A stretch of DNA of 64,000 nt from Vicinamibacterales bacterium. Lineage in GTDB: Bacteria > Acidobacteriota > Vicinamibacteria > Vicinamibacterales > JAENWD01. A model generated the notes under the pieces. It was not told the origin of the DNA, ran no database searches, and saw only the letters and a list, made by a program, of their open reading frames with translations. The stretch lies in contig DASVDJ010000035.1 in NCBI GenBank assembly GCA_036381155.1, positions 73,755 through 137,754 on the forward strand, given 5' to 3'. Below are positions 12,823-56,053 of this stretch, in pieces. Each line of letters begins with the position of its first letter. Position 1 is the stretch's first letter. A program made the position numbers and the translations under genes.

Positions 12823-13053
12823 TCACCGACGGCCTGCCAGCTGGCGGATCCGGTTCGCGGCCGTCTCCGCGTTGCGGGCGGCGTCCACGATCCGCGACAG
12901 GTCGCTGCGAAGCGGCTCCGGAAGGTCCGGCGTCGTGAGATGCCAGTCGGCAAGGCCCAGAATCGTCGTGAGCGCGTTGTTCAGCGCATGCACCTGCTCG
13001 AGGATGCGCGGTCGCACCGCATCGTCAGGTCCGGGATCTCCCCCGCTGCTCAC
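12823..13053 (-). CDS. Stand-alone histidine-kinase DHp (HisKA-like) mini-protein, hypothetical
   Basis: 76 aa from GTG 13053, which overlaps the TGA of the HD-GYP gene (GTGA) with AGGTG 5 nt upstream. It has an H-box-like EQVHALNNALTTILGLADWHL followed by a second helix. There is no ATP-binding domain. Confidence 0.45.
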   Translation of the reverse strand: MSSGGDPGPDDAVRPRILEQVHALNNALTTILGLADWHLTTPDLPEPLRSDLSRIVDAARNAETAANRIRQLAGRR

Positions 13054-14120
13054 GACGTCACCTGGAGAGGCGCCGGATGGCTGCCGGCGTCCGGGTCGCT
13101 CGCGCCCGGCCGCCAGGACTCCGCGATACGGAGCCAGGCGTGGACGATGGCCGGGTTGAATCGCGATCCCGCACAGCGCACGAGCTCGGCCGCGGCGCGG
13201 ATCGACGCCAGCGTGTCGTCGGGCCGCTCGGAGGTCAGCGCGTCGAACGTATCGACGACCGCCACGATGCGCGCGCCGACGGGAATGGCTTCGCCGGCGA
13301 GTCCGAAGGGATGCCCGCTGCCGTCCCACGCCTCGTGCGACGCGGCGACGATCGCGGCGGCGCGTTCGAGACCGGGCACGGCGCGCACGACGTCGGCGCC
13401 GAGCTGCACGTGCGTGCGGATGAGCGCGATCTCCTCGTCGGTCAGCGGTCCGCGCCTCCTCATGAGCCCGTCAGGCAGCAGCGCCTTGCCGACGTCGTGC
13501 AGCAGCGCGCCGCGCGTGACGTCGGCCGTCTGCGCGGCGTCGAGTCCAAGTGCGCGGGCGAGCTCCGTTGCCATGCGGCTCACGCGCCACGCATGCTCCA
13601 CGGCTTCCGGCGCGCGCTCGCCGATGGCACGCACCAGCGACATCGTCGCCGACCCGGGGTCCGGCTGCGCGGCTGCGACTGCCGTCAACTCGTCGCGGCG
13701 GCGGGCGATCGCGTCGCGGGTCGCCTGCTCGGCCTCCCGATCGCGACGAACGCTCTCGCACCACTGCACGGCACGCCGCACCGCCTGCATCAGCTCGCGG
13801 CGCGAGAACGGCTTCAGCAGGAAATCGAGAACCCCCAGTCGGAGTCCTTCGGCCGCGACGTCGCATCCCTGATGCCCGGTGACCAGTACCACGCCGATGT
13901 CGGGATACTGTTCGCGCACCAGCCCGGCGAGCCACAGCCCGTCCCGGCCCGGCAGGATGAAGTCCAGCAGCACGACGTCGATGCCACCGGCCGACAGCCG
14001 GTCCAGTGCCGACACGGCGTCGCCGGCAACGGCACAGCGGTACCCCGCCGCCTCCAGCCACGACGACAGCAGGTCCCGAACGGCCGGATCGTCGTCCACG
14101 ATGAGAATCGATGCGTTCAT
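13050..14120 (-). CDS. Response regulator with HD-GYP-type domain (variant motifs)
   Basis: 356 aa from ATG 14120. REC domain (ILIVDDDPAVR, LLDFILPGRDG, FLLKP) plus an HD-GYP family domain (LLHDVGK, SHEAWDGSGHPFG). Confidence 0.88.
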   Translation of the reverse strand: MNASILIVDDDPAVRDLLSSWLEAAGYRCAVAGDAVSALDRLSAGGIDVVLLDFILPGRDGLWLAGLVREQYPDIGVVLVTGHQGCDVAAEGLRLGVLDFLLKPFSRRELMQAVRRAVQWCESVRRDREAEQATRDAIARRRDELTAVAAAQPDPGSATMSLVRAIGERAPEAVEHAWRVSRMATELARALGLDAAQTADVTRGALLHDVGKALLPDGLMRRRGPLTDEEIALIRTHVQLGADVVRAVPGLERAAAIVAASHEAWDGSGHPFGLAGEAIPVGARIVAVVDTFDALTSERPDDTLASIRAAAELVRCAGSRFNPAIVHAWLRIAESWRPGASDPDAGSHPAPLQVTS

Positions 14121-14186
14121 GTGCTGCGGTCCGCTCCTGCTCCTGCGCACCACGGGCGGAGTGAACCCGTGACGCGCTTCAGCGTG

Positions 14187-16092: not shown

Positions 16093-16121
16093 CGCTTCGC
16101 CTCCGCGTTGCCGGCGCCGTC

Positions 16122-16934: not shown

Positions 16935-17131
16935 GACTCGCCTCCCCGGCCGTCGAGCACGGCATGCTTGAAGCGGATGATGCGCTCGAGGATTTCGTCG
17001 GGCGTCTCCCGCACCATCAGCGTCTCGCCGTTCGCCAGCGAGATGAGGGTGTCGGGCGTCCGCTCGACGCTGTAGATCACGTCGACGTTCAGCAGCATGG
17101 CGGATCCATCGAGCCGCGTGACGGCAATCAT
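16925..17131 (-). CDS. flbD: Flagellar protein FlbD
   Basis: 68 aa. MIAVTRLDGSAMLLNVDVIYSVERTPDTLISLANGETLMVRETPDEILERI is the FlbD pattern. It lies immediately upstream of motA2, as in Firmicutes and spirochaetes. Confidence 0.8.
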   Translation of the reverse strand: MIAVTRLDGSAMLLNVDVIYSVERTPDTLISLANGETLMVRETPDEILERIIRFKHAVLDGRGGESWR

Positions 17132-22664: not shown

Positions 22665-22665
22665 G

Positions 22666-23295
22666 TCAGTGCGCGTCGGCCGCGCGCCGCGCGAGTGCGG
22701 CCAGGGCGGAGAAGAACGGCTCGCACCGGCCGAGCGCCGGCTCGAGATCGAACTCGAGGATGTCGGCGACGGTCACCCAGTCCTGCTGCGCCTGCGCCTC
22801 GGACAGGGCCGCCAGCGGCGTGCCGAGCCCCTCGAGCACCTCGATGGCCGTCTGCCCGTCGCATTCGGCCGCTTCGAGCGGCACGCCCATGGCGGTGCCC
22901 AGTGCATCGAGGAGCGACACCAGCGTCCGCAGGCCTCCGGTGAGCTCCGCGAGCCCCTCGTTCGCGTACACGGCGTCGGCACGCCGGAATCGTTGCGCGA
23001 TCTCGAGCGTGTGCTGCCGGAGCCCGGCGAGTCCGCGGAGCGCCTCGTCGAGCGAGGTCGCGACGAGCGTGGCCGGCGTGGCCACCTCCATCTCCACGAC
23101 CGCGAAGTCATCCAGCGTGCGCGCGGCGAACGCGGCATCGCGGAATGACGGCTCCTCGACGCCGTCGAGTCGAACCGCCGTCACCACTTCGCCGGCCGAC
23201 GCGCTGGTCCGATCCGCCCACGCGAGCAAATCGCCCAGCGTTTTCAGGCCCGGTTCGAGATCGCGCGCCTGGCTGTTCACGAGCACCCTGGTCAT
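22666..23295 (-). CDS. Hypothetical protein, first gene of the sugar operon
   Basis: 209 aa from ATG 23295, with GGAGG 9 nt upstream. GC3 is high. I recognise no family by eye. Confidence 0.6.
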   Translation of the reverse strand: MTRVLVNSQARDLEPGLKTLGDLLAWADRTSASAGEVVTAVRLDGVEEPSFRDAAFAARTLDDFAVVEMEVATPATLVATSLDEALRGLAGLRQHTLEIAQRFRRADAVYANEGLAELTGGLRTLVSLLDALGTAMGVPLEAAECDGQTAIEVLEGLGTPLAALSEAQAQQDWVTVADILEFDLEPALGRCEPFFSALAALARRAADAH

Positions 23296-23323
23296 CACCG
23301 CAGTCCTCCGCGGGGACTCTCCG

Positions 23324-23339
23324 GCCAGAACCGTGCCAT
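23324..23339 (-). promoter_or_regulatory. Sigma-54-type -24/-12 promoter for the sugar/flbD/motAB2 operon
   Basis: The minus strand reads aTGGCAC-ggttc-TGGCc with exact GG-N10-GC spacing. The predicted start lies just upstream of the GGAGG of the first gene. Confidence 0.5.
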
Positions 23340-23445
23340 GTTCCGCGGTGATCTGTGCGCCACGGATCGGCGCGCGCGTCCGCTCGTGCGTGAGTGCCGT
23401 GAGGAGGTTGGCTGCTGCGTGTCGTGCCGTGCAGTGGTGCGCGAA

Positions 23446-25035
23446 TCAGCTCGCTGCGGTTGCCGCGGCCCGTCCGGAGAAGATGCGCGCGAGCAGCCGC
23501 GCACGCCTGGCGGCCATCGCCCACTCCTCCCGGTAGAAGTGCGCCAGCGACCGTACGTCATGTCCGGCAGCCGACTCGAGGCGGGTGCGCAGGTACGCGA
23601 CGACCGGCAGCAGGATTGGAGTGACGGTAGCCGCCGTGTGCGCCACCTCGAACGCGCGCCCCAGTTCGGTGGCATGCGTCTCTGCGGCCCGGTTCGCGCC
23701 ATCGATGCGCCGGGCGATCGCCGCCGCCCGATCTGCTCGTACGGCGAACCGCTCCAGCGCCCCGATCAGATCCCGATCGTCCAGCGCGAGCTCCTCGAGC
23801 GCGAGGCCGTCGGGCGCCGGCACGCCGGGCACCGGCATCGTCGTCTCCCACATCCGCGCGAGCGCGCGGCGCTCGATGCTCTGGCGCCGGCCGGCGGGCT
23901 CCCACACCGGCCGGTACTCAATCCGTCCGGTAGCGGTCCGTTCCGCCACGAGGACCCTGGCCCGAGCCGGCCGCACGAGCGGACCGTCGCCGAGCGCGAA
24001 GCGCGCGAGACCGGCAATCTCGGCTTCGTTCAGATCGTCACGGCACGTCAGCTGATGGCAGGACGCGCCGGCGGCGCACGGGAAGCAGGCCGCCGTCGGC
24101 TCCACCGCGACGGAGCCGGCCGCATACGGACCGGTCTCGTGCACGAACACCGGTCCCGTGGACAGGTCGAGCACCCGCGTGCCGACGGCCACCGCGACGT
24201 GCATCGTCCCGGTGTCGTTCGTGACCAGGAGCCGCGCGTGCCCGAGCAGCGCCGCCAGCTCCGGCACCGACGTCTCGCCCGCCGCGTCGATGGCCGGCCG
24301 GTCGAGCCGGGCGAGCGCACGACCCACGAGCGGACGCTCCGACGCGGATCCGACGAACACCATCGTGCCTGCGGATGCGGGCAGCAGATTCGCCATGGCG
24401 GCAACCCGCTCCGGCGGCCAGCGCTTGCGCTCGTCGCTGGCACCGAGCTGCAACGCGATCAGCGGTTCCCCTGTCCATCCCCGCGTGCGGAGCCAGGCCT
24501 CCATCTTCGTCCGGGCCTCGACCGGCACGTCGATCTCGAGCCTGCCGTCGTCGATCGGCACGCCGGCGGTCCATTGGAAGAGGTCGACGAGGTTGATGCA
24601 GCCGTACGTCCGCGCCAGCTGGCTCGCCCAGAAGTACGCCATCCAGGGATGGCGGACCACACGCGTGCGATCGGGCGCGATCAGGGCGCCGCGGACCTCG
24701 CGGGCCCGCACCCGCGCGCTGAGCAGGTTCGCCGTCGGGCTGCCGGTCAGATTGAGCACGAGGTCGAACGGCTCGGTGCCGAGCGAGTCGAGGAACGCAC
24801 GCAGTTCGCGCCTCGCCGCCGTCCAGTCGGTCCTGACGGATTCGCCCAGGCTCCTGAGGGGGAAGACTGCCAGCTCGTCGTAGAGCGCACGCGGTACCGG
24901 TGTGTGGCTGAAGCCGTCGAACACCATCAGCGTGATGCGCGCCCCCGGATGCGCACGACGCAGGCCACGCAACATCGGCGTGGTCTGCAGCATGTCGCCG
25001 AGCCGGCAGAGCTGGATGACGAGGATGCGGGTCAT
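23446..25035 (-). CDS. GT9 (heptosyltransferase-like) glycosyltransferase with long C-terminal extension
   Basis: 529 aa. MTRILVIQLCRLGDMLQTTPMLRGLR and LLVTNDTGTMHVAVAVG are GT9 hallmarks. A Cys cluster (CFPCAAGASCHQLTC) and about 190 extra residues follow. Confidence 0.8.
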   Translation of the reverse strand: MTRILVIQLCRLGDMLQTTPMLRGLRRAHPGARITLMVFDGFSHTPVPRALYDELAVFPLRSLGESVRTDWTAARRELRAFLDSLGTEPFDLVLNLTGSPTANLLSARVRAREVRGALIAPDRTRVVRHPWMAYFWASQLARTYGCINLVDLFQWTAGVPIDDGRLEIDVPVEARTKMEAWLRTRGWTGEPLIALQLGASDERKRWPPERVAAMANLLPASAGTMVFVGSASERPLVGRALARLDRPAIDAAGETSVPELAALLGHARLLVTNDTGTMHVAVAVGTRVLDLSTGPVFVHETGPYAAGSVAVEPTAACFPCAAGASCHQLTCRDDLNEAEIAGLARFALGDGPLVRPARARVLVAERTATGRIEYRPVWEPAGRRQSIERRALARMWETTMPVPGVPAPDGLALEELALDDRDLIGALERFAVRADRAAAIARRIDGANRAAETHATELGRAFEVAHTAATVTPILLPVVAYLRTRLESAAGHDVRSLAHFYREEWAMAARRARLLARIFSGRAAATAAS

Positions 25036-26721
25036 CGTGCCCTCACGACTTCCCTCACGTCGGCGAGGATGCGCAGCTCGATCTCCTCGTCGTCGAGCCG
25101 GGGCGCCTGCGCCGCGCGCGCCAGCGCGTCATCGAGTGATTCCTGCGGGGCCGGCGTCGCACCGGGCTGCAGGTGAGGCGGCAGCGCCTGACGCAGCAGT
25201 TCGGTCACGCGGTGCTCGCAGGTGTGCTCGCGCAACACACGCTCGCGGGCTCGTGCGGCAATCGCGACCGCGTCCTCGGCCCGATCCAGGTAGTGCTCTG
25301 CCAGCGCGCGCATCTCCGCGGCGCTGCGGAACGTGACCATCTCGCCGGCATCGAACAGGGCCGGCAGCGGCTCGCGGTGATCGACCAGCTGAAATGCGCC
25401 ACACGCGGCCAGCGCGAACGTCCGCGCGTTGACGAAATCGGGCTGCGGATCCAGTCCCATGACATGGGCCGCGGCGTGCATGTTCAGGTTGACGCGTGTG
25501 GCCGCGACGATCCGGCGCGTCGCTTCCGTATCGACCCGCCCGGGCTCACCCCGGCAGGGAGCCAGCGGCGTGGTCTCCCCCCCCATCGCCCCACACACGG
25601 AGACCGAGGTCGCGTACCGCTTCGAGCAGATGACGGCGATTCAGGTGTGGCGCACCCACGAAGCTCACCGAGGCCCCAAGGCGCTGCCGCTCGGCGTCGT
25701 CGAGCGCAACAGGCAGGTGGACTGCGGGGTCGCACGCCAGCGGCAGGTAGTGGACGCGCACGGCGCCGGCTGCCGCAATCTGGTCGAGAGCGGCCCCGGG
25801 CTGAATCGCGAAGAAGGTGTCGTAGAAGCGCGCGACCTCGCGCCAGGACGGATGCGCGCGCACGTTCTCGACGAACCAGCACGCGGTCCGGATGCCGGCT
25901 TTCCGCAGCGCTTCGAGCGGAGTGACGCTGAGCGGCGCCCGCCCGACCGTCAGCACGAGGTCGGCCGGCCACTCACACGCGAGCCGGACGATGGCGTCGC
26001 CGAGCAGGAGCGTGAACTGCTCCTGAAGCCCGGTACGTGTGCCATCTCCTACGGGAAGAGTCCGGAATGCCTCCTGCGTGCCTGCGAACGCGCGTCCGTC
26101 GAATCGCCGGACCTCGCAGCCGGTCTGCCGCGCCGCCCGTTCGACAGAGTCCGCCACGTCCGGCGAGCGACCGGCCGTCCCACCGACGACGAGCACGCGG
26201 GGCGCTCGCGCGACCGGCAGTGAGGCCCAGCGTTCGGCCAGCGCCTGCAACGCAGGAGTCACGGCGGCGCTGGGCGTGTGCACGACGACAGCCGGTGCCG
26301 CCGCCCGCAGCCGGGCGAGCGCACCCGGCGCGGCGAGATCCTCCAGCGCGATGAGCGGCACCTGCTCGATCAGGTCGGACAGGTCCCGCGCCCGGAGGAC
26401 GCCGGCGATCACGGCGGCGCGCTCGACGACGGCCGCGACGACGACACCACGCCGGCGGAGAGCTTCGGCGAAATAGCCCGTCCCCAGGCCGAGGAGGACC
26501 ACGCGCGCGGCGGTCACATCGGCGGCGGCCGCTTCGGCCACCTCACGGGGGCGGCGGCGGCTGTCGAGCGGCCGACCGTGCAGTTCGAGCACCGGCTCCC
26601 CTGTTGCGGCCGGCGCGGTCGACGGGACGTCACCCCCGGCGATGATCTCCAGCACGCGCGCGGCCGTGTCCGGCACACGGCTGCGCAGGATCGCCAGGTT
26701 CCAGTCGAACAGCGCGCTCAT
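25032..26721 (-). pseudogene. CgeB-like/DUF3880-type glycosyltransferase split by a frameshift (two ORFs, 25546-26721 and 25032-25598)
   Basis: The upstream ORF ends ...LGLRVWGDGGGDH. The downstream frame continues ...GETTPLAPCRGEPGRVDTEATRRIVAATRVNLNMH...NARTFALAACGAFQLVD...REHTCEHRV, the C-terminal half of the CgeB-type GT fold. Removing one G from the G8 run fuses them. Confidence 0.7.
25577..25584 (-). repeat. Homopolymeric G8 (C8 on the plus strand) at the frameshift point
   Basis: The plus strand reads tggtctCCCCCCCCatcg. The frame change between the two half-ORFs maps exactly here. Confidence 0.9.
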
Positions 26722-40300: not shown

Positions 40301-41023
40301 CTACCGTCGACCCAACTCGGTGATCGCCCGTCCGTCGAGGTCGTTCATCAGGACGCTGACGCCCTTCTGCAGCGCCTCGAACGTGCGGGTCACCTCGGTC
40401 AGCTCCGCAATCCGCTCCACCATCGAGACGTTCGATCGCTCGATGGCGCCGCTCTGCAGGCGGGCTTCCGCAGCGGCTGTCGGCTGGACGCCAACGGGCG
40501 CCCGGAACCGCGAGCCGCTCTCGCGCACCAGGCCGTTGTAGTCGTCGAAGTCCACGATGCGCAGCCGGCCCGCAATCGCCGCGCCCGTGCGGATCGTGCC
40601 GTCGGGCTCGACGCTCAACTCCCCCTCGCCGAGCCGGATCGGCCCGTCGACGCCGAGCACCGCGTGGCCGTCCTCGGTGACGAGCGTGCCGTCGCCGGCC
40701 CGCGTGAAGTGGCCGTTGCGCGTGTAGCGCGGTCCCGCCGGCGTGTCGACGACGAAGAAGCCGCGCCCTTCGAGCGCGAAGTCGAGATCGCGCCCGGTGG
40801 GTGCGATGGCGCCGGCGCGGAAGTCATAGCGTGCAGGGCCTGGCGCCACGTCGACGGCCGCCTGCAGCGCGCGGTCGAACATCGGACGCTCCGCTTCGGT
40901 CGTGGTGCCGCGCCGGGCCTTGTAGCCGGACGTCGATCCGTTGGCGATGTCGGCGGCGAGGCGGTCCAGATGATCCGCCCGCGCCCGCAGTCCGCTCAGT
41001 GCGACGTAAGCACCGCCTGCCAT
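40301..41023 (-). CDS. flgF: Flagellar proximal rod protein FlgF
   Basis: 240 aa from ATG 41023, with AGGAGG 7 nt upstream. YVALSGLRARADHLDRLAADIANGSTSGYK, FTRAGDGTLVTEDGHAV and a C-terminal TRTFEALQK. Confidence 0.85.
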   Translation of the reverse strand: MAGGAYVALSGLRARADHLDRLAADIANGSTSGYKARRGTTTEAERPMFDRALQAAVDVAPGPARYDFRAGAIAPTGRDLDFALEGRGFFVVDTPAGPRYTRNGHFTRAGDGTLVTEDGHAVLGVDGPIRLGEGELSVEPDGTIRTGAAIAGRLRIVDFDDYNGLVRESGSRFRAPVGVQPTAAAEARLQSGAIERSNVSMVERIAELTEVTRTFEALQKGVSVLMNDLDGRAITELGRR

Positions 41024-41808
41024 GACGGGTCCTCCTGCGTGGCGACGAACAGGTTCCGGCCGACGCGGCCGTCGGAGACCCGGACCCACAGCCACGGATC
41101 GATGCGGGCCTGGCTCACGACCGCACCCGGCAGCGCTGATGCCGCCTCGGCGATGCGCGGGCCGGCGGCCTCGCGCGAGACGACACACTCATCGGCGCCG
41201 GCCTCGGTCGCCAGGGCGGCGTACTCGTCGACGAGCTCCGGCAGCACCTCGTCGGGTACCAGGAACACGTCGGCATGCCAGCCGGTCAGCTCGCGCAGCG
41301 CGCCGACGGCCAGCCGCGGCACGGGGGCGGCGCAGGCGACCTTCATCGCGCGCCGCTCCTGATCCACCGCGAACGGCACCAGCCCCAGCGCCTGCACGGC
41401 GTGCGCGCCCAGCTCGGGACAGAGCCGCACGGCGCTGCGATCGAGCGTGGTGAGACACGGCACGCCGGCCTGTGCCGCGAGCGCCTTGACGACGGCGGCC
41501 GGATCGGTCGCGCCGCGGGCCACGAGTTCCGCGCCGAGACGCCGCCCGGTGGACTGCTGCGCGGCGAGCGCCTCACGCAGCTGCACCGGCGTGACGGCGC
41601 CGTGATGCACCAGCAGCAGCCCGACCTTCAATCGCGGCAGCGCGCGGCTCCGCACCTGCTCCAGTGCGGCCGCCCGCGCCACGTCGTCGCTGGCCTGCCG
41701 GCCGGCGCACTCGGCGGAGCAGTACCAGTCGCCGTTCATCACGAGGCCGCCGCGCGCCAGCAGACCGGGCCGCCAGCGCCCGCAGTCAGCCCAGCTGCAC
41801 CGCGGCAT
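40996..41808 (-). CDS. Stand-alone MshEN (T2SSE_N)-like domain protein with N-terminal Cys4 motif; putative c-di-GMP receptor
   Basis: 270 aa. Residues 61-113 read KVGLLLVHHGAVTPVQLREALAAQ-QSTGR-RLGAELVARGATDPAAVVKALAAQ, which is two 24-residue MshEN-type motifs with a 5-residue spacer. Cys4, 9, 30 and 34 form the N-terminal motif. There is no ATPase domain. Confidence 0.7.
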   Translation of the reverse strand: MPRCSWADCGRWRPGLLARGGLVMNGDWYCSAECAGRQASDDVARAAALEQVRSRALPRLKVGLLLVHHGAVTPVQLREALAAQQSTGRRLGAELVARGATDPAAVVKALAAQAGVPCLTTLDRSAVRLCPELGAHAVQALGLVPFAVDQERRAMKVACAAPVPRLAVGALRELTGWHADVFLVPDEVLPELVDEYAALATEAGADECVVSREAAGPRIAEAASALPGAVVSQARIDPWLWVRVSDGRVGRNLFVATQEDPSWQAVLTSH

Positions 41809-42286
41809 CGCTGCTCCCGTTCGTCTTGATCGCCTTGATCGTCCGGCGCACCTTGTGCCCGTTCACGGCCGGCGTCTTCTTCGCGGCCTTGCGCGCGGGC
41901 TGGCGCGTCTTCCCGTCGTTGGCGACATGGAGACGCAGACGCACCTCGCCTTCGGCCATCTCCTCGGCCGCGGCGATCTCGGCGACCGACTTGCCCTTCT
42001 GTGCGGCGCGCGCCACGCGGCGGGTGCGCGCCGCCGACGCGGCGCGTGCCACGGCCGGCGACGGCGCGGGCACCCGCGTCATCTCCGCGGCGACGGCCCG
42101 GAACGCGGACTCGGTCGTGTCCGTGAGCAGCGTGAGCGCGTCGCTCATCTTGTCGAGGCGTGATTCGAGCGCGCCCACCCGCGTCAGCGCCCGCGTGGCG
42201 CGCAGCAGCAGCGCCCCCTGCACCAGTACGAGCACCGTCGCGGCCAGTCCCACCATCCAGGTCGTCGTCACCATGTCCATCTGCAT
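41786..42286 (-). CDS. Membrane-anchored hypothetical protein (DUF2802-like)
   Basis: 166 aa from ATG 42286 (ATGA overlap with the fliY stop). One N-terminal TM helix, a coiled segment and a C-terminal KGKSVAEIAAAEEMAEGEVRLRL HTH-like motif. Confidence 0.55.
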   Translation of the reverse strand: MQMDMVTTTWMVGLAATVLVLVQGALLLRATRALTRVGALESRLDKMSDALTLLTDTTESAFRAVAAEMTRVPAPSPAVARAASAARTRRVARAAQKGKSVAEIAAAEEMAEGEVRLRLHVANDGKTRQPARKAAKKTPAVNGHKVRRTIKAIKTNGSSDAAVQLG

Positions 42287-43071
42287 CACGCTCCCAGCGA
42301 TCGAATGCGATCGGCGGTGCTGACCACTTCCGTCACGCGCACGCCGTAGTTGCCGTCCACCACCACCACCTCACCGCGCGCCACGACCTTGCCGCTCACG
42401 AGCACCTCGACGGGCTCGTCGAGCGAGCGATGCAGGTCGATGACGGCGCCCGGCGCCAGGCGCGACAGCGCCTGGACCGTGAGCTGCGTCTGCCCGAAGC
42501 GGACCGACAGCGGGAGGTCCAGATCGAGCAGCAGATCGAGATTCACGCCGCCGGCCGGCTGCGCCGTTCCCTCCGCGCGCCCGTTCGCCGCCGGCGCTTC
42601 CGCGCCGGCGCTCTCCTCCGAGAGCTCGCCGCCGAGGACGATGGCCGCGTCGCTGCCGCCCGGCAGCGTGAAGCGCCAGGCGCGCACGCCGGTCGACTCC
42701 GGTGCGGCGCGCCAGACGTCCTCGATGACCACCGTCACCCCGGCAGTCCGGTCGTTCTGCGCGAGCGCGCCGATCGCCTGCTGGCAGATCTCGCGCACGG
42801 TGTCGAGCACCGCGTCGTCGGCCGGCACGCTGTCCTCCTCGAGGCCGAGAACCAGGCGGGACACGCGCCGGCCATCCTCCTCCGTCAGCCCGACCCGCGC
42901 CCGGCCGGACAGCGCGCCGGCCACGCGAAGCGCGGCCGTCCAGACCGGCTGTGGCACGACGGTCTGCGGGACCACCTCGGTCGACTCGCCGAGCAGCGAG
43001 ACCACCGCGTTGGCGACCTCGCGCGCAATCGCCTCGAACAGCTGCTCCTGGGTCACTCCGGCGCCGCTCAT
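42286..43071 (-). CDS. fliY: Flagellar switch protein FliY/FliN-type (CheC-like N-terminal part + SpoA domain)
   Basis: 261 aa. The C-terminus LDLPLSVRFGQTQLTVQALSRLAPGAVIDL...VLVSGKVVARGEVVVVDGNYGVRVTEV is a SpoA/FliN domain. The N-terminus has one E-x2-N motif (AREVANAVVSLLG). Confidence 0.8.
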   Translation of the reverse strand: MSGAGVTQEQLFEAIAREVANAVVSLLGESTEVVPQTVVPQPVWTAALRVAGALSGRARVGLTEEDGRRVSRLVLGLEEDSVPADDAVLDTVREICQQAIGALAQNDRTAGVTVVIEDVWRAAPESTGVRAWRFTLPGGSDAAIVLGGELSEESAGAEAPAANGRAEGTAQPAGGVNLDLLLDLDLPLSVRFGQTQLTVQALSRLAPGAVIDLHRSLDEPVEVLVSGKVVARGEVVVVDGNYGVRVTEVVSTADRIRSLGA

Positions 43072-44054
43072 GCCACCTCCTCCAGCGCCGCCGGCTCCTC
43101 GACGGGCTCGATTTCGATCGCGGCGGAGTGCGCCAGCCTGGTGAGCCGGCCGGTGAACTTGGGCAGGCCGCCGACCTTGACATCGAGCGGCTTCGCGACG
43201 GATCGATCGAGCGCGATGACGTCGCCAGGCGCGAGCTGCAGCAGGTCACGCGCCGTCAGAGTGGCGTCGAGCGTCGCCGCGACCGGGAGCGGAATGCGAC
43301 CGATGTTCTCGAACAGCCGCGCGCGGTCCTGCTCGGTCTGATCGCGGCGGGTCCGCTGCCAGCCCTGCGAGAACGACGCGCCCAGCGACTCGATGACCGA
43401 GGCGGGCAGTGCGAGGTTCAGCATTCCCCGCGCCTCGCCCACCCGGATGGCGAAGACCAGCAGGATGAAGATCTCGTTCGGCGCCGAGACCTGCACCATC
43501 TGCGGCCGGGTCTCGCGCGCGTGGATGACGAACTTCAGCCCGCCCACCGGCTTCCAGAGCTCGGTCAGGTTCTCGAGGAGCAGCCGCACGACCGCGTCGA
43601 TGACGTTCTGCTCGATCTCGGTCAGGCCGCGCGCGGGCATCGTCGTCGAGCCGTTGCCGCCGAGCATCCGGTCGATCATCGTGAAGGCGACCGACGGGCT
43701 GAGCTCGAGCGCGCCCAGCGCGTCGAACGGCGGAAGCGCAATCGCGTAGAACGCGGTCGGGTCGGGGAGCGACATCAGGAACTCGGAGTAGTTGAACTGC
43801 TCCACCGAGACGATGGTGACGTCGGTGACCGCGCGCAGGTACGCCGAGAGCGACTGCGCCATGTTGCGGGCGAACCGGTCGTGCATGAAGTGCATCGACC
43901 GGATCTGGTCCTTCGAAACGCGATCGGGGCGGCGGAAGTTGTACGTGATGTACGGCTTCGACGGCGCCGGCTCGTCGTCGGCCTCGAGCGCCTCGAGCGC
44001 CGCGGCCGAGCCGAGCAGCGCGTCGATTTCCTGCTGGGAGAGGATCTTGCCCAT
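43068..44054 (-). CDS. fliM: Flagellar switch protein FliM
   Basis: 328 aa from ATG 44054. The N-terminal CheY-P docking motif LSQQEIDALL, YNFRRPDRVSKDQ and a C-terminal SpoA-like domain. Confidence 0.92.
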   Translation of the reverse strand: MGKILSQQEIDALLGSAAALEALEADDEPAPSKPYITYNFRRPDRVSKDQIRSMHFMHDRFARNMAQSLSAYLRAVTDVTIVSVEQFNYSEFLMSLPDPTAFYAIALPPFDALGALELSPSVAFTMIDRMLGGNGSTTMPARGLTEIEQNVIDAVVRLLLENLTELWKPVGGLKFVIHARETRPQMVQVSAPNEIFILLVFAIRVGEARGMLNLALPASVIESLGASFSQGWQRTRRDQTEQDRARLFENIGRIPLPVAATLDATLTARDLLQLAPGDVIALDRSVAKPLDVKVGGLPKFTGRLTRLAHSAAIEIEPVEEPAALEEVA

Positions 44055-44800
44055 CAGCCCTTCACCGGGAGGTTGAGCGAGGCGCGGAGGCTCACGCGCA
44101 GCCGCGACAGCGCCAGCGACCGGAGCTGCGAGACACGCGACTCGCACACGCCGATCACCGCGCCGATCTCGGCCATCGTCAGTTCTTCCTCGTAGTAGAG
44201 CGCCAGGATCTGCCGTTCGCGCTCCGGCAGCTCCGCGATTGCGCGCGCGAGGTGCTCACGCAGCTCGGAACGCTCGAGCCTGACGTCCGGTCCCTCCTCG
44301 GGGTCGATGCACAGCTCGAGGATGGACATGCCGTCCTGGTTGGGCGCCTCGAGCTGGCGCAGCGCGCCGAGCTCGAGCGACCGCACCTGCTCCAGCGCGC
44401 GCTCGTACTCGGTCTCCGACAGGCTCATCGCGTCGGCGATCTCGGCGTCCGTCGGCTCGCGGCCGAGATCGTGGCGCAGGCGCGCGATGGCCGTGTCGAG
44501 ATCGCGCCGCAGCTTCCGCAGCGACCGGGGGGCCCAGTCGAGATCCCGCAGCGCGTCGAGCATCGCCCCCTGGACGCGGCGCCGCGCGAACGCGTCGAAC
44601 GGCACGCCGGTGGACGGCCGGTAGCGCGTGGCGGCATCCATGAGGCCCAGGATGCCGACGCTGATCAGATCCGTGACCTCGACCTGCGACGGAAGGCGCT
44701 GGACGAGGCGCTGCGCAAGCGCCTTGACCAGCCCCACGTGCTCGAGCACGAGCTGATCGCGATCCATGACCGGCTCGGCGGTCTTCGCGGCTACGCGCAC
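44054..44800 (-). CDS. fliA: Flagellar sigma factor FliA (sigma-28)
   Basis: Sigma-70 regions 2, 3 and 4 are present (DLISVGILGLMDAATRY, LYYEEELTMAEIGAVIGVCESRVSQL). The GTG at 44800 has GGAGG 4 nt upstream. An alternative ATG lies at 44767. Confidence 0.9.
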   Translation of the reverse strand: MRVAAKTAEPVMDRDQLVLEHVGLVKALAQRLVQRLPSQVEVTDLISVGILGLMDAATRYRPSTGVPFDAFARRRVQGAMLDALRDLDWAPRSLRKLRRDLDTAIARLRHDLGREPTDAEIADAMSLSETEYERALEQVRSLELGALRQLEAPNQDGMSILELCIDPEEGPDVRLERSELREHLARAIAELPERERQILALYYEEELTMAEIGAVIGVCESRVSQLRSLALSRLRVSLRASLNLPVKG

Positions 44801-45822
44801 GGGACCTCCGCAGGATGCGAGTCGGCGGTCACCGGCTCGCCGAGAACGGCGGCGGCCAGCAGCCGCCCGGTTGCCCGCCGCAGGTCTTCCGGCACCATCT
44901 GCCCGCATCCGATCCAGGACACGGGCAGCGCGCGGGCGCGGAGCACCGCGATGACCGCGGCGGCCGATTCGGTTTCGTCGACCTTGGAGAGCACGACGCG
45001 GCGGAACGCGGCGGGCGCATACCGATCGAGGACGCGCTCGGCGTCGCGCGTGCTCAGACCCGCCGGCAGCACGAGGTGCGTCCGGACGCCGGGACGGCCG
45101 CTTAGCGCGTCGAACAGATCGCGGATGCCGCGGTCGGCCGGCGAGCGGCCCGCGGTGTCGACCAGCATCGGGCGGCCCGCCGTGCCCACCGCGCGTTCCA
45201 GGTCGAGCGCGGTGCGGGCGACGACGAACGGGAGGCCGAGAATCTCGGCGTAGAGCCGGAGCTGTTCGACCGCGCCGACGCGGTACCCGTCCGCCGCGAC
45301 GAGCGTCGGCCGGGCGTGCCCGCGCGCGCGCGCCTGTGCGGCGATCTTGGCGATGGTCGTGGTCTTCCCCGCGCCCGGCGGGCCGACGAACACTTCGACG
45401 GGCGCGGCCGGCTCCGGACCCGCCACGAGCGGCTCCAGCCGGCGCGCCAGCGTCTCCGCGATCACGCGCGCCGACGGGTCGCGTCGCGACGCCGGCGGCA
45501 ACGCGGCCGCGACCTCGGTCGCCAGACCGCGATCGACCCCGGCGGCGACGAGGCGCGCGACGACGGTGTCGCCACCCGTCCGTTCGGCGCGATCGACGAC
45601 AGGCGCCACAGGTGTCGTGACCGGCGTCTCCTCGGGTCGGCTTTCCGACAGCCTGGCCGCCCGGGCGGCCGTGACTTCGACCTCACGCCGTCCGGTGATC
45701 CGGCGCCATCCGCGCATCGGAACCATCAGCGTGGACAGCACGAGCGCGTCGGGGCCGAGCGTCTCGCGCGCTTCGGCGAGCGCTTCACGAACGGTAGGCT
45801 TGCGGAATCGCTGCACCTGCAT
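44791..45822 (-). CDS. flhF: Flagellar biosynthesis GTPase FlhF
   Basis: 343 aa. SRP-type GTPase motifs: GPPGAGKTTTIAKIAA, LVDTAGRS, SKVDET. Confidence 0.88.
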   Translation of the reverse strand: MQVQRFRKPTVREALAEARETLGPDALVLSTLMVPMRGWRRITGRREVEVTAARAARLSESRPEETPVTTPVAPVVDRAERTGGDTVVARLVAAGVDRGLATEVAAALPPASRRDPSARVIAETLARRLEPLVAGPEPAAPVEVFVGPPGAGKTTTIAKIAAQARARGHARPTLVAADGYRVGAVEQLRLYAEILGLPFVVARTALDLERAVGTAGRPMLVDTAGRSPADRGIRDLFDALSGRPGVRTHLVLPAGLSTRDAERVLDRYAPAAFRRVVLSKVDETESAAAVIAVLRARALPVSWIGCGQMVPEDLRRATGRLLAAAVLGEPVTADSHPAEVPCA

Positions 45823-51131: not shown

Positions 51132-51428
51132 CTACTCCGTGGCCGCCGGCGCGGCGATCTCGGTGATGCGCAGGGCCGCGCTGTCCTCGATGATCACGAC
51201 CTCGCCGCGCGCGAGGAGCACGCCGTTGACGACGAGCTGCAGGTCTTCCCCCGCCGATTGCGACAGCTCGATGATGCTGTTGCGGGCGAGCCCCAGACAC
51301 TGGCGGACCGACATCACGCCGGTGCCGAGCAGGACGTTCACCGGGCAGGGGACGTCCAGCACGCGGGAGAACGGCTGCGCCGCCGCCGGCGCCTCAGAAC
51401 TGGACGACGAAGTCTGAGAAGAGGACAT
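51132..51428 (-). CDS. fliN: Flagellar switch protein FliN (short SpoA-only form)
   Basis: 98 aa. VPCPVNVLLGTGVMSVRQCLGLARNSIIELSQSAGEDLQLVVNGVLLARGEVVIIEDSAALRITEI is a SpoA domain. Confidence 0.85.
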   Translation of the reverse strand: MSSSQTSSSSSEAPAAAQPFSRVLDVPCPVNVLLGTGVMSVRQCLGLARNSIIELSQSAGEDLQLVVNGVLLARGEVVIIEDSAALRITEIAAPAATE

Positions 51429-52165: not shown

Positions 52166-54433
52166 ATGCCACTGACGCCCCTGTCCGCTGGACATCTCCT
52201 CTTCTCGGGATGGTTGGCTGCCCAGCCCGCGCCGTCAGGTCCACCCGCCATCCTGCTTCACGGCCCGCCGGCTCCGGAGCCGCCGGCTGTCCTTGCCCGG
52301 GACGACCAGGGGCGGGCGACGGTGCGTGCCGTGCGAATCGACACGCCGCTGCGCATCGACGGCGTGCTCGACGAAGGGGTGTACCGGGAGGTGCCGTCGA
52401 TCGCCGACTTCCGGCAGATCGAGCCGGAGGAAGGGGCGCCCGTGTCGGAGCCGACGGAGATCTGGGTGCTCTTCGACCGGGAGCACCTCTACATCGTCGC
52501 CCGCTGCGCCGACAGCCAGCCGGATCGCATCGTCGCGAACGACATGCGCCGCGACGGCGCCAACATCACGCAGAACGACAACATCAGCATCGTCATCGAC
52601 ACGTTCTTCGACCGGCGCAACGGCTACGAGTTCCTCGTCACGCCCGTCGGCGGCATGATGGACAGCCAGGTCACCGACGAGCGCGACGTCAACCGGGACT
52701 GGAACACCGTCTGGAGCGCGCGCAGCCGGCTGACCGACGAAGGCTGGACCACCGAGGTGCGGATTCCGTTCCGGTCGCTGCGCTATCAGGGCGCCGGCCC
52801 GCAGGTCTGGGGGCTGAACGTCCGCCGGACGATCCGCTGGAAGAACGAGTACGCCTACCTGAATCCGGTGCCGCGCTCCGAAGGGGCGCGCGGGATCCTG
52901 CGCTTCTCGATGGCGGCGCCGCTCGTCGGACTCGACATCGACGTCGAGTCCATCGGCCTCGACGTCAAGCCCTACGCGCTCGGCGCGGCGCGCGCGGATC
53001 GGGTGCTCGACCCGCTGTTCCGCACGGAGGGAGACGCCGATGCGGGGTTCGACGTGAAGTACGGGATCACCCGGAGCCTGACCGCCGACTTCACGCTCAA
53101 CACCGATTTCGCCCAGGTCGAAGACGACGACCAGCAGGTGAACCTGACGCGCTTCAGCCTGCTCTACCCCGAGAAGCGCGAGTTCTTCCTGGAAGGCCAG
53201 GGGATCTTCGGATTCGGAGGCGTCGAGAGCTCGCCACGCCGCGCCGCCACGGCCCCGACCAACACACCGGTGCTGTTCTTCAGCCGCGCCATCGGGCTGG
53301 CCGGCGACCGGGCGGTGCCGATCAATGCCGGAGGCCGCCTCACGGGCCGTGTCGGCAAGTACAGCGTCGGGTTACTCCAGATCCGCACCGGCGACGAGGA
53401 AGTGGCCGGGTTGCCGGAGACGGACTTCTCCGTCGTGCGCGTCAAGCGCGACATCCTGCGCCGCAGCTCCGTCGGCGTGATCGGCACGCGCCGCTCGGCC
53501 GCCGGCGCCGGAACCAATACCGCGTTCGGCATCGACACGGGCCTGAACTTCTTCCAGTTCCTCAACATCGTCGGGTACTACGCCGAGACACGCACACCGG
53601 GTCTGGAGGGTGAGAACCGCAGCTACCGGGGCCGGCTGGCGTACGACGCCGATCTGTTCGGGCTCACGCTCGAGCACCTGGCGGTCGGACGGAACTTCGA
53701 TCCGCAGATCGGCTTCCTGCGGCGCGACGGGTTCGTGGAGAGCCTCGCGCAGATGCGCGTGAGCCGCCGGCCGCAGTCACTGGAGTCGGTGCGGAAGATC
53801 AGCGTCGAGACGGGCTTCGACTACATCACCGACCCGGACGGCCGGGTCGAGAACCGGCAGGTGCGGGCGGCGCTCAGGACCGAGCTTCAGAGCAGCGACT
53901 CCTGGACGATCGAATACCTGCACGACTACGAGTTCGTGCCCGAGCCGTTCACGATCCCCGGCGGCATCGTCGTCCCGGTCGGCGCGTACCGCTTCTCGAG
54001 CCTGATCGGCCGCTACACCATCGGCGCCCAGCATCGCGTCGCCGGCGACGTCACGCTCGCCTACTCGGGGTTCTACGGCGGCACGCGCGCGGAGGCGGGC
54101 TATCGCGGCCGCGTGGAGGTGACGCGTCGCCTGGCCGTGGAGCCCGGCCTCTCCGTGTTCAAGCTCGATCTGCCGAACGACGAGACCACCGCGGCGCTCG
54201 TCAGCGTGCGCACGACCTACAGCTTCAGGCCGAACATGTGGCTGGCCGCGCTCATCCAGCACAACTCGGCCAACCATCTGTCGACGGCGAACGTGCGCTT
54301 CCGGTGGGAGTACTGGCCCGGCAGCGATCTCTTCGTCGTGTACAGCGACGGCCGCAACACGCTGCTCCGCGGCCCGGAGCGGCTGCAGAACCGTGGCTTC
54401 ACGGTGAAGATGACCCGCCTGTTCCGGTTCTAG
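52166..54433 (+). CDS. CBM9-like/DUF5916-family protein (putative outer-membrane or secreted)
   Basis: 755 aa. RIDGVLDEGVYREVPSIADFRQIEPEEGAPVSEPTEIWVLFDREHLYIVARC and WTTEVRIPFRSLRY form the CBM9-like module. A long beta-rich C-terminus ends in F. Confidence 0.8.
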   Translation: MPLTPLSAGHLLFSGWLAAQPAPSGPPAILLHGPPAPEPPAVLARDDQGRATVRAVRIDTPLRIDGVLDEGVYREVPSIADFRQIEPEEGAPVSEPTEIWVLFDREHLYIVARCADSQPDRIVANDMRRDGANITQNDNISIVIDTFFDRRNGYEFLVTPVGGMMDSQVTDERDVNRDWNTVWSARSRLTDEGWTTEVRIPFRSLRYQGAGPQVWGLNVRRTIRWKNEYAYLNPVPRSEGARGILRFSMAAPLVGLDIDVESIGLDVKPYALGAARADRVLDPLFRTEGDADAGFDVKYGITRSLTADFTLNTDFAQVEDDDQQVNLTRFSLLYPEKREFFLEGQGIFGFGGVESSPRRAATAPTNTPVLFFSRAIGLAGDRAVPINAGGRLTGRVGKYSVGLLQIRTGDEEVAGLPETDFSVVRVKRDILRRSSVGVIGTRRSAAGAGTNTAFGIDTGLNFFQFLNIVGYYAETRTPGLEGENRSYRGRLAYDADLFGLTLEHLAVGRNFDPQIGFLRRDGFVESLAQMRVSRRPQSLESVRKISVETGFDYITDPDGRVENRQVRAALRTELQSSDSWTIEYLHDYEFVPEPFTIPGGIVVPVGAYRFSSLIGRYTIGAQHRVAGDVTLAYSGFYGGTRAEAGYRGRVEVTRRLAVEPGLSVFKLDLPNDETTAALVSVRTTYSFRPNMWLAALIQHNSANHLSTANVRFRWEYWPGSDLFVVYSDGRNTLLRGPERLQNRGFTVKMTRLFRF

Positions 54434-54445
54434 TGCATGGTCCGC

Positions 54446-54469
54446 GGGGAGCGGTGGCTCCCGCTCCCC
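54446..54469. terminator. Bidirectional stem-loop between convergent DUF5916 gene and fliK
   Basis: A 9-bp perfect stem GGGGAGCGG/CCGCTCCCC with a 6-nt loop, abutting the fliK stop codon. Confidence 0.5.
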
Positions 54470-56053
54470 TCAGACCCGAATCTCGAACACCGGTTCCGCG
54501 CCCGACCGGCGCTTCGGAGCCCGTGGCCGCTCGTGCTCCCGGGCCTGCTGCCGTTCGCGCTGCGTGTCCTCGTCCCGGACCACGAGCTCCTCGAGCGTCA
54601 GGCCGAGCTCGGAGAGCCCGGTTCGAAGATCCTGTTCATGCGCGGTGAGCCAGCCGCGAACCGCCGCGGTGTCGGCTCCGAGTACGGCCGTGACCTGGCG
54701 CCCGTCCACCCTCAGGTCGACCGTGACCGTTCCCAGGTGTTCGGGAGAGAGCGTGAGGCGCACCTGCCCGCCGCCCTCGCGGACCTGCATGTGCAGCGTG
54801 CGAATCAGCTGCGGGCCGACCGTCGACAGCTCGGCCTCGGAGGGCATCGGCAGCCCGCTTCCGGCCGTGAGGCGCGCGAACGTGTCGGACGCCACGGGGT
54901 CGGGAGCAGGCCCGGCCGCGACCGGCCAGAAGACGTGCGGCGCGGCGAAGGTGCCCGGACGCTGATCCTGCCCGCGATCAGCGCCGCCCGAATGGCCCTG
55001 GCTCGCATGCGCGACGCGGAGCACGGCCGGCGAGACCGCCTGCTCCGTCTGAGCGTTCGACGGCTCGACGTCGATCGTGTCGTCGATCCGCGGTGCCGGC
55101 ACGCCAACGGCCGGGGCCTGCCGCTCCGCAACAGCTTGAGCCGCGGCGGGAGGCCCCTCTGCCGGTCGCGGTGTGACGTCCGCGTTCTGCGGCTCGGCCA
55201 CGGGCTGGCCGCCGGACCGTTCCGCCGCTGCGAGGGATCCACGATGTGCCGCGGCGACGGCGGCCGACAACACCGCCGCTGCCTCTGCCCGAACACCGGA
55301 CCTGATCGGCGGAGCCGTGTCGGCCATCGCCTTCGTTGCAGGCAGCGTGGGGCTCGCCGGCGTCGTCGCAGCCGGCGCCGCGTTTGCCACCGGCTCCCGG
55401 TCAGCGACCTGCGGAAGCGCGGTATCGCGATCGGCCTTCGATCCATCCGCGGGTGCCGGCGTCGCGTCCAGCGCGAGGTCCAGGGCTCCGCCAGCCTTCT
55501 CGCCGGCCTCGATCGACGCCTGTTCGATCGAATCGGTCGCCGCCACTGACACGAGATCATCCGCCCCTGCGGTCTCGATCGACCCGTCGTGCGCCGGTGC
55601 CAGCCCCGGCGCTGGAATGTCCGGGAGGATCCACGCCTGTTCAGGCGGGACGGGCACGTCGGAGGAGACGGGAACGACCTCTCCGCGCTCCTGCTCTCTG
55701 TCCACACCATCGCTCATATCGGGCGCGTCGGACGCTGACTTGTCCCGACGAGCGGCGACTGCGGCCGTGTGGTCCTCCGGCGAGCGCGTCTCGTCGACGT
55801 GTCCCCGTGTCTCCGCGGCGTGCTCCTTTCGATCTGCGGGACGCCCGTCCCGCGCACGGGACGGGGCGCGCGACTCCGCCGCGCGCCCATCCAGGGCCGC
55901 CGTGGTCCCTCCGGACGCCTCTTCCGCGCCCACACGGCCCGTGGCCGACGCCAGAGCCGTGTCGAACGACGATGCCGGAGCGGCTGTGCCGCGCGGGCCG
56001 GCGGCCGGCGCCGGCGCGGATCCGACGATCGGAAGCAGCGTGCCTGCTGTCAC
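54470..56053 (-). CDS. fliK: Flagellar hook-length control protein FliK
   Basis: 527 aa, GTG start. Pro/Ala-rich ruler region plus the C-terminal Flg_hook domain (LSPEHLGTVTVDLRVDGRQVTAVLGADTAAVRGWL). Confidence 0.8.
   Translation of the reverse strand: MTAGTLLPIVGSAPAPAAGPRGTAAPASSFDTALASATGRVGAEEASGGTTAALDGRAAESRAPSRARDGRPADRKEHAAETRGHVDETRSPEDHTAAVAARRDKSASDAPDMSDGVDREQERGEVVPVSSDVPVPPEQAWILPDIPAPGLAPAHDGSIETAGADDLVSVAATDSIEQASIEAGEKAGGALDLALDATPAPADGSKADRDTALPQVADREPVANAAPAATTPASPTLPATKAMADTAPPIRSGVRAEAAAVLSAAVAAAHRGSLAAAERSGGQPVAEPQNADVTPRPAEGPPAAAQAVAERQAPAVGVPAPRIDDTIDVEPSNAQTEQAVSPAVLRVAHASQGHSGGADRGQDQRPGTFAAPHVFWPVAAGPAPDPVASDTFARLTAGSGLPMPSEAELSTVGPQLIRTLHMQVREGGGQVRLTLSPEHLGTVTVDLRVDGRQVTAVLGADTAAVRGWLTAHEQDLRTGLSELGLTLEELVVRDEDTQRERQQAREHERPRAPKRRSGAEPVFEIRV

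Follow-up and report, generated by a model that had tools for sequence, protein, structure and literature searches.

Control of flagella by cyclic diguanylate (c-di-GMP) is a central theme of the switch from motile to sessile life. To our knowledge, the direct flagellar effectors of c-di-GMP are PilZ proteins, FleQ/FlrA-type regulators and FliI. YcgR, FlgZ, MotI/DgrA and PlzC belong to the PilZ type and are small cytoplasmic proteins that act on the motor or basal body. MshEN, the other widespread receptor module, has so far been associated with type IV pili, with type II secretion and with the synthesis of exopolysaccharides. Here we describe a small protein with an MshEN domain whose gene is built into the core flagellar operon of a Vicinamibacterales bacterium, a member of the abundant and little-studied soil phylum Acidobacteriota. 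The DNA analysed is a stretch of 64,000 nt (contig DASVDJ010000035.1 of assembly GCA_036381155.1, positions 73,755 to 137,754). We call this whole stretch the window; all coordinates refer to it, and its GC content is 72%. With moderate confidence, we regard the protein as a dedicated c-di-GMP receptor that acts on the flagellar basal body.

The closest described systems are MshE, PilB, PilF and PA14_29490 (PMC5013675; PMC11731258). The window protein shares their tandem 24-5-24 motif with its conserved G, L and Q residues, and it is predicted to share their two-subdomain fold. It is 28-29% identical to MshE-N and PilF GSPII-B in structural alignment, and, like PilF GSPII-B, DgPilB2 and CtPilB, it has K at position 1 of motif 1. 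Unlike the MshE/PilB-type proteins, it has no ATPase, and its MshEN domain lies between a Cys4 finger and a beta-alpha-beta-beta-beta domain. Its gene is in a flagellar operon rather than with pilus or type II secretion genes, and, with no motor ATPase fused to it, its output must be protein-protein. An MshEN domain outside the secretion ATPases is also found in the NfrB-type glycosyltransferase-MshEN proteins (PMC8669469), whose NCBIfam models gave the best full-length alignments of the MshEN region. In contrast to NfrB, the window protein has neither a glycosyltransferase domain nor membrane segments, and it belongs with a different machine. The PilZ effectors share the proposed role and a genomic association with motility genes; they differ in fold and in binding mode, a PilZ beta-barrel with RxxxR instead of a leucine-triangle four-helix bundle. 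The gene described here is also distinct in standing inside the structural operon, between C-ring and rod genes.

MshEN input into chemotaxis and switch proteins has been noted before, as a (MshEN_N)2-CheX fusion (Glov_2742) and as MshEN_N embedded in CheA (Wang 2016, Suppl. Table 4; PMC5013675). Both are uncharacterised fusions that contain MshEN_N only, whereas in the window the whole MshEN domain stands as a protein by itself, with flanking domains of its own. The MshEN architectures listed in 2016 included ATPase, glycosyltransferase, REC, kinase, HEAT, CheX, CheA and others, with no zinc-finger form and no link to a flagellar operon (PMC5013675). Literature searches for MshEN or T2SSE_N together with flagella or swimming, and for MshEN from 2023 onward, found no description of a flagellar MshEN protein.

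The MshEN domain

An earlier note on this DNA had described the gene product as carrying two 24-residue c-di-GMP-binding motifs joined by a 5-residue spacer, and the translation contains exactly this arrangement. Residues 61-113 read KVGLLLVHHGAVTPVQLREALAAQ/QSTGR/RLGAELVARGATDPAAVVKALAAQ, with the motifs at residues 61-84 and 90-113 and the spacer at residues 85-89. The departures from the motif consensus that had been listed are there as well: K at position 1 of motif 1 (M1-1), V at M1-2, A at M1-11, A/T at M2-11/12 and V at M2-17.

Four independent lines of evidence, namely a curated model, a profile search, the predicted fold and column conservation, establish that the MshEN assignment is real. 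The NCBIfam model NF053729 (c-di-GMP_motif, MshE-related) matched residues 63-113 with 49.7 bits against a cut-off of 38 (E 2.2e-13). NfrB-type glycosyltransferase models of NCBIfam aligned to residues 59-200 (E 1e-12 and 5e-11), and the alignments to the NCBIfam PilB and NfrB models were confined to residues 59-203. When a profile of 26 relatives was searched against the PDB, it matched Thermus PilF (E 6e-37, all GSPII repeats), PilB and MshE-N (5HTL, E 2e-13). Column conservation was examined in 107 relatives. Position 1 of motif 1 is R in 65 and K in 40 (105/107), G3, L6 and Q24 are each present in 100%, position 17 is L, I or V in 100%, and L21 is found in 92%. Position 1 of motif 2 is R in 75 and K in 17 (92/107), with G3, L21 and Q24 each at 100%, and the spacer is five residues long in all 107. 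The ligand-contacting positions are the most conserved columns of the protein, and on this alignment they are under strong purifying selection.

Many MshEN domains no longer bind c-di-GMP (PMC5013675). One alternative is therefore that the domain is degenerate and ligand-independent, like the N-domains of XpsE and GspE, and that the protein is a structural adaptor or a chaperone of the basal body. The window sequence departs from the consensus at several places in the motifs and does not match the strict tandem regular expression (T at M2-12, V at M2-17). Only 12 of 115 relatives passed the relaxed tandem expression (Wang), and a Pfam search with the window protein gave no PF05157 match at E<=1. 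These results favour a degenerate domain and count against a functional receptor. However, the column analysis showed that the failures stem mainly from R at M1-7 and polar residues at positions 11-12, which are not ligand-contact positions, and the relaxed expression was dropped as a criterion for this reason. The G, L and Q contact positions are the ones at 100%, the NF053729 cut-off was passed, and none of the eight substitutions listed as disabling XpsE (G11V, I19R, L29R, R38G, G40L, L54H, L58C and Q61V; PMC5013675) was found in the MshEN protein. K61 in place of R is not a defect, because PilF GSPII-B (K167), DgPilB2 and CtPilB also have Lys at this position and bind c-di-GMP at 6-53 nM (PMC11731258). 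The earlier note had proposed a search with PF05157 and would have taken a missing match as refutation. For this one sequence that outcome formally occurred, but PF05157 covers the C-terminal subdomain and not the 53-residue motif, so the non-match of the window protein says little about the motif. The same model matched 20 of the 26 relatives (best 2.4e-8) and distant orthologues at 6e-9 to 4e-4. The MshEN domain is thus intact in sequence and in predicted fold, and a ligand-independent adaptor is an unlikely explanation.

Structure prediction, another check that had been proposed, gave a confident AlphaFold2 model built from 108 sequences (pLDDT 91.4, pTM 0.86). The best superposition found by Foldseek was on MshE-N with c-di-GMP (5HTL, chain 5HTL_B; E 1.2e-8, TM(target) 0.73, 29% identity, 143 columns). 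The best matches also included c-di-GMP-bound PilF GSPII-B structures, and the fold matches were exclusively of the MshEN type. In the model, helices 62-68, 74-87, 91-97 and 103-114 make up the four-helix bundle, which is followed by an alpha/beta unit to about residue 200. The earlier note had assigned about 150 residues after the motif to an unknown fold. This did not hold for residues 114-200, which correspond to the alpha/beta subdomain MshEN_C (T2SSE_N1), and it did hold for the approximately 50 C-terminal residues, which are uncatalogued. These are predicted to form a beta-alpha-beta-beta-beta unit in which W241 is invariant across clades and R243 nearly so. The whole-model Foldseek search gave no significant PDB match to this unit; there were weak matches to glyoxalase/MCEE-like half-domains at E>0.5. 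It is presumed to be the output surface.

The N-terminal module is probably a zinc finger. All four cysteines that had been noticed are present in the translation: C4 and C9 lie in an N-terminal knuckle, and C30 and C34 are placed where helix 32-48 begins, within the signature W-[YF]-C-S-x-x-C. C4 and C9 are kept in 77/77 and C30 and C34 in 102/102 of the relatives that cover those columns, and all four are invariant in three clades. Their spacing and the modelled knuckle-plus-helix topology are compatible with a treble-clef-like finger. Pfam searches with the isolated N-terminal fingers of eight members gave sub-threshold matches only (zf-FCS, 0.052; zf-MYND, 0.065; SmtA, 0.016). Pfam and NCBIfam found no ATPase or other catalytic domain in the 270-aa protein, in agreement with the claim that its MshEN domain is not attached to a secretion ATPase, and Pfam gave no PilZ or YcgR match.

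Operon position and conservation

The same protein is present in the databases as 'hypothetical protein VF198_03760' from a Vicinamibacterales (Acidobacteriota) metagenome-assembled genome (MAG). The ATG of its gene is at 41808, with the Shine-Dalgarno sequence GGGAG 5 nt upstream. Both overlaps that had been claimed for the gene ends were seen: 23 nt with the upstream open reading frame (ORF), which ends at 41786 and encodes a 167-aa protein that we call X167, and 28 nt between the flgF start and the stop region of the MshEN gene. A promoter/terminator scan across 36-46 kb gave neither a promoter-like nor a terminator-like signal exceeding chance. The MshEN gene is embedded in the operon, is probably co-transcribed with the C-ring and rod genes, and is translationally coupled to the C-ring genes (fliM, fliN) and the rod genes (flgF, flgG).

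This placement is conserved. The order FliA-FliM-FliN-X167-MshEN-FlgF-FlgG-FlgA was found in 23/23 Vicinamibacterales loci of GTDB representatives, and long metagenome contigs agree. The GTDB contig scan used a single peptide pattern and reached Vicinamibacterales-type relatives only; with an exhaustive profile search, 149 representatives were recovered at E<1e-30. They include a second tier whose members are full-length, about 280-310 aa, and built in the same way from finger, MshEN and C-terminal domain. Part of this tier belongs to Terriglobia and 'Ca. Acidiferrales', in which the order is fliR-flhB-flhA-fliA-fliM-fliN-MshEN-(HDOD-like)-(CheY)-(CheX)-flgF-flgG. These loci have neither flhF nor X167, and their orthologues are at about 25-30% identity. 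In a lower-GC lineage (54-60% GC), one locus (L034) reads fliN-HDOD-DUF2802-MshEN-flgF and another (L036) reads flhA-flhF-flhG-fliA-fliM-fliN-154aa-MshEN-flgF.

The survey beside flgF that the earlier note had suggested therefore found the gene kept in Vicinamibacterales, in Terriglobia and in the lower-GC lineage. At least three deeply diverged lineages share its position, and the placement after fliN and before flgF is kept down to about 22-25% identity, which is strong evidence for a flagellar function. The claim that the gene belongs to the flagellar operon was borne out over this deep divergence. Either the 261-aa type of FliN or X167 lies directly upstream of the MshEN gene in every locus examined, and fliM-fliN is the sole constant upstream neighbour.

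The nearest solved relatives of the protein are all N-domains of pilus or secretion ATPases, and the gene could in principle be a passenger with no flagellar role, such as the remnant of the N-terminus of a type IV pilus or secretion ATPase. This is very improbable. More than 30 loci, between them spanning about 22-100% protein identity and 54-72% GC, have the gene in the identical place. The relatives also retain the whole layout of the protein, finger and C-terminal domain included, and the gene is translationally coupled to its neighbours.

HDOD genes recur beside the MshEN gene (L031-L035). They stand either after it, followed by CheY and CheX genes in 3/4 Terriglobia loci, or, in L034, before the DUF2802 gene. 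The HDOD, CheY and CheX neighbours may be a conserved signalling module at the junction of C-ring and rod genes in the operon. The CheY and CheX genes that follow the MshEN gene in Terriglobia can be compared with the (MshEN_N)2-CheX fusions mentioned above.

Two GTDB loci (L008 and L024) labelled 'uncultured Bifidobacteriaceae bacterium' contain orthologues that are 91% and 40% identical, in the same order fliN-X167-MshEN-flgF. The Bifidobacteriaceae labels of these MAGs are almost certainly wrong. One apparent natural loss (L030, 3600-4830), in which X167 and the MshEN gene are split over three frames, was judged to be a probable long-read indel or frameshift artefact.

The upstream gene and FlhF

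That the upstream gene overlaps the MshEN gene had been noticed before, without its being recognised as conserved and FipA/DUF2802-like. From the family alignment and the AlphaFold2 model, X167 has an N-terminal transmembrane helix, a long coiled helix and a C-terminal helical hairpin. Its motifs are an invariant LLTDTTE and, in the hairpin, RGxSVxxIAAxEExxEGEVRLRL (RGxSVxxIAAAEExxEGEVRLRL in the window). Pfam DUF2802 matched 8/27 members of the family with marginal E values (0.017-0.32). The syntenic L034 protein passes the DUF2802 cut-off (34.3 vs 33.5 bits), and the 154-aa L036 protein is 28% identical to it. Alignment of the X167 profile with the L034 and L036 proteins by hhalign was colinear, with E 5.6e-4 and 2.7e-3 and probabilities of 30% and 11%. 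The AlphaFold2 model of X167 (pLDDT 77, pTM 0.29) gave no fold match in the PDB.

DUF2802 is FipA (PMC11620751). This membrane protein organises the formation of polar flagella; it binds FlhF and brings it to the pole. X167 shares with FipA a short N-terminus, the transmembrane segment, a coiled region, the C-terminal helical motif and co-occurrence with flhF. The likeness is marginal, and the gammaproteobacterial FipA genes differ in being downstream of the flhF-che operon with no reported MshEN partner. Judging from these alignments, X167 may be a distant FipA homologue outside the gammaproteobacteria. The MshEN protein itself is unrelated to FipA.

Since X167 is FipA/DUF2802-like and its gene overlaps the MshEN gene, FlhF-dependent assembly is a serious alternative to a motor brake. 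In this alternative, the MshEN protein would regulate assembly or placement: it would form a complex with the FipA-like protein and act through FlhF (and FlhG), and high c-di-GMP would block or relocate the initiation of new flagella. What is controlled would then be how many flagella form or where, and not the running of a motor already in place. The overlap of the two genes, which is also seen in L001, L034 and L036, suggests stoichiometric co-production, and a DUF2802 protein above the Pfam cut-off takes the position of X167 in L034. Among the loci examined, X167-type genes occur only in operons that contain flhF and are absent from the Terriglobia operons without it, and the known FipA brings its partner FlhF to the pole. 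MshEN_C/N1 domains are docking modules for membrane-platform proteins, as in GspE-GspL (2bh1, 4pht) and PilB-PilZ (7lkm), which were among the fold matches. In addition, fusions of MshEN_N to AAA_31 (ParA/MinD-like) domains exist (Wang 2016, PMC5013675), and FlhG is AAA_31-like. However, the kinship of X167 to DUF2802 is weak, as the hhalign probabilities and Pfam E values (>=0.017) show, and the Terriglobia loci keep the MshEN gene after fliN with neither flhF nor a FipA-like gene. FipA/FlhF cannot then be its sole partner, because the gene persists where both are missing. In lineages with FlhF this route is a strong competitor; overall, we regard action through FlhF as a possible but doubtful explanation.

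Proposed function

If the protein is a c-di-GMP receptor of the basal body, as we favour, the four-helix bundle of MshEN_N would bind a single c-di-GMP molecule in the sub-micromolar range, as happens in MshE, PilF and NfrB. Binding would re-orient MshEN_N relative to MshEN_C, the finger and the C-terminal domain. Depending on its ligand state, the protein would then dock on, or leave, the cytoplasmic face of the basal body. The FliM/FliN switch complex would be the most likely docking target, because fliM-fliN is the constant upstream neighbour, because the CheY and CheX genes are adjacent in Terriglobia, and because MshEN_N-CheX fusions occur elsewhere. High c-di-GMP would curtail rotation or further assembly, which would make the protein a functional analogue, with an unrelated fold, of the PilZ brakes YcgR, MotI and FlgZ. 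The brake, clutch or assembly checkpoint that the earlier note had suggested is likewise a hypothesis. In lineages with FlhF, the FipA-like membrane protein would probably tether or position the MshEN protein at the nascent flagellar site.

Several points beyond the motif departures weigh against this interpretation. A gene that stands among C-ring and rod genes could equally well, or better, encode an assembly factor. Known flagellar brakes are mostly encoded outside structural operons. Its close overlap with a FipA-like gene suggests a link to FlhF and not to the C-ring, and the zinc finger could instead bind nucleic acid or a sigma factor.

The last point leads to another explanation, that the protein, when armed with c-di-GMP, regulates sigma-28 or transcription. 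The analogy is RsiG-(c-di-GMP)-WhiG, reportedly an anti-sigma system of this kind in Streptomyces: the liganded protein would sequester FliA, or its finger would bind nucleic acid, and the late flagellar genes would be shut off. The Cys4 finger is a common DNA/RNA- or protein-binding module, and in every locus fliA precedes the MshEN gene by two to three genes. X167 contains a helical hairpin like that of sigma region 4, and some of its relatives are annotated as sigma24 or NarL. However, proximity to fliA is common to all genes of the operon, FlgM is already encoded in the cluster, and Pfam, Foldseek and the finger searches found no likeness to any anti-sigma or DNA-binding family. A role of this kind is quite unlikely. 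Compared with the routes through FliM/FliN or FipA/FlhF, a domain that has lost its ligand, an anti-sigma-28 role like that of RsiG and a mere passenger are all less likely.

A more specific version of the basal-body receptor is a long shot. The MshEN protein might be a stoichiometric, c-di-GMP-gated accessory of the basal body that is made with FliM and FliN, is tethered by the FipA-like protein in FlhF lineages, and serves as a checkpoint that follows completion of the C-ring and export gate and precedes the onset of rod assembly. It would then represent a third class of effector, independent of PilZ and FleQ, that goes back to the ancestor of Acidobacteriota and also occurs in one or more other lineages. 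If so, the construction of the flagellum, and not only its rotation or transcription, would depend on c-di-GMP.

The protein combines a known receptor module with a new architecture and attaches it to a new machine. If it acts on the flagellum as proposed, a second receptor fold was recruited convergently to this organelle, and c-di-GMP might be tied to FlhF/FipA-dependent flagellar placement. The hypothesis is directly testable, because the family is small, the model is confident, the targets for point mutation are clear, and the candidate partners are fixed and encoded by its neighbours: FliM, FliN, the FipA-like protein and FlgF, with CheY, CheX and HDOD proteins in Terriglobia.

The motility supercluster

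The whole window is one large motility supercluster, annotated here with our own gene calls based on GC content at third codon positions (GC3). The features discussed are collected in Table 1. The first part of the cluster has the order cheB, cheX, cheY, cheR, cheW, cheA, motB, motA and then a REC-HD-GYP gene. It is followed by a nonulosonic-acid/glycosylation island with a second motA inside, two flagellin genes, fliD and fliS. Next, on the minus strand, are flgL, flgK, flgM, an M23 peptidase gene, flgI, flgH, flgA, flgG, flgF, the MshEN gene and X167. The minus strand continues with fliN (261 aa), fliM, fliA, flhF, flhA, flhB, fliR, fliQ, fliP and a short fliN, and ends with fliL, flgE, flgD, fliI, fliH, fliG, fliF and rod genes.

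Table 1. Features of the MshEN gene, its neighbours and the REC-HD-GYP gene in the window
Feature	Coordinates	Strand	Evidence
MshEN-protein gene, 270 aa	40996..41808	minus	ORF; exact database match; AlphaFold2 model pLDDT 91.4, pTM 0.86
Probable N-terminal Cys4 zinc-finger-like module, residues 1-50	41659..41808	minus	Translation; invariant Cys; AlphaFold2 secondary structure
Tandem 24-5-24 MshEN_N motif, residues 61-113	41470..41628	minus	Translation; NF053729; column conservation in 107 relatives
MshEN_C / T2SSE_N1 alpha/beta subdomain, residues 114-200	41209..41469	minus	Alignment to NfrB, PilB, PilF and MshE to about residue 200; Foldseek 5HTL; PF05157 in relatives
Family-specific C-terminal beta-alpha-beta-beta-beta domain (predicted), residues 205-256	41041..41196	minus	AlphaFold2 secondary structure
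FlgF (proximal rod) gene	40301..41023	minus	Pfam rod domains; ATG 41023 behind AGGAGG
X167, 167 aa, DUF2802/FipA-like	41786..42289	minus	ORF; family alignment; AlphaFold2; weak DUF2802 matches
FliN-type C-ring protein, 261 aa, long N-terminal extension	42286..43071	minus	PF01052 E 4e-23; PDB FliN matches; synteny
FliM	43068..44147	minus	Synteny tables with PF02154; tblastn
REC-HD-GYP-type protein	13050..14153	minus	PF13487 HD_5 1e-35 and Response_reg; heads motA-motB-cheA-cheW-cheR-cheY-cheX-cheB block

The earlier note had placed a sigma-28-controlled HD-GYP protein near the MshEN gene. A REC-HD_5 protein is indeed present, but it is 27 kb away, and no E. coli-type sigma-28 site (TAAA-N14-17-CCGATA) was found anywhere in the window, including upstream of the REC-HD-GYP gene. 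The protein may be a c-di-GMP phosphodiesterase that belongs to this motility supercluster; it is context rather than a proven component. Its signature is HEAWDGSGHP, with GHP instead of GYP, which makes phosphodiesterase activity uncertain.

There are two FliN-type genes, the 261-aa one beside fliM (42286-43071, minus) and a minimal one of 98 aa beside fliL/fliP (51132-51428, minus). The N-terminal extension of the 261-aa FliN had no sequence relative in the PDB and a weak CheX-like signal (E 0.05). In the window, flhF runs directly into fliA (44054-45822, minus) with no flhG between them, whereas L001 and L036 have flhG (ParA/MinD-like) at this place.

Two MotA paralogues are encoded at 11776-12657 (minus) and 16122-16934 (minus). 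The second is apart from motB and within the glycosylation island; this location hints at a second stator or an ExbB-like system. The sugar-modification island itself (14238-26721) extends between the mot/che genes and the flagellin genes and encodes a PseB-like dehydratase, an ATP-grasp protein, NeuB, a DegT aminotransferase, GT9 and DUF3880 proteins. It probably serves the glycosylation of flagellin with nonulosonic acid. In the gap between fliL and flgE, two genes on the plus strand (52166-55549) break the minus-strand cluster; one encodes a 755-aa DUF5916/CBM9 protein and the other a 370-aa protein with no Pfam match.

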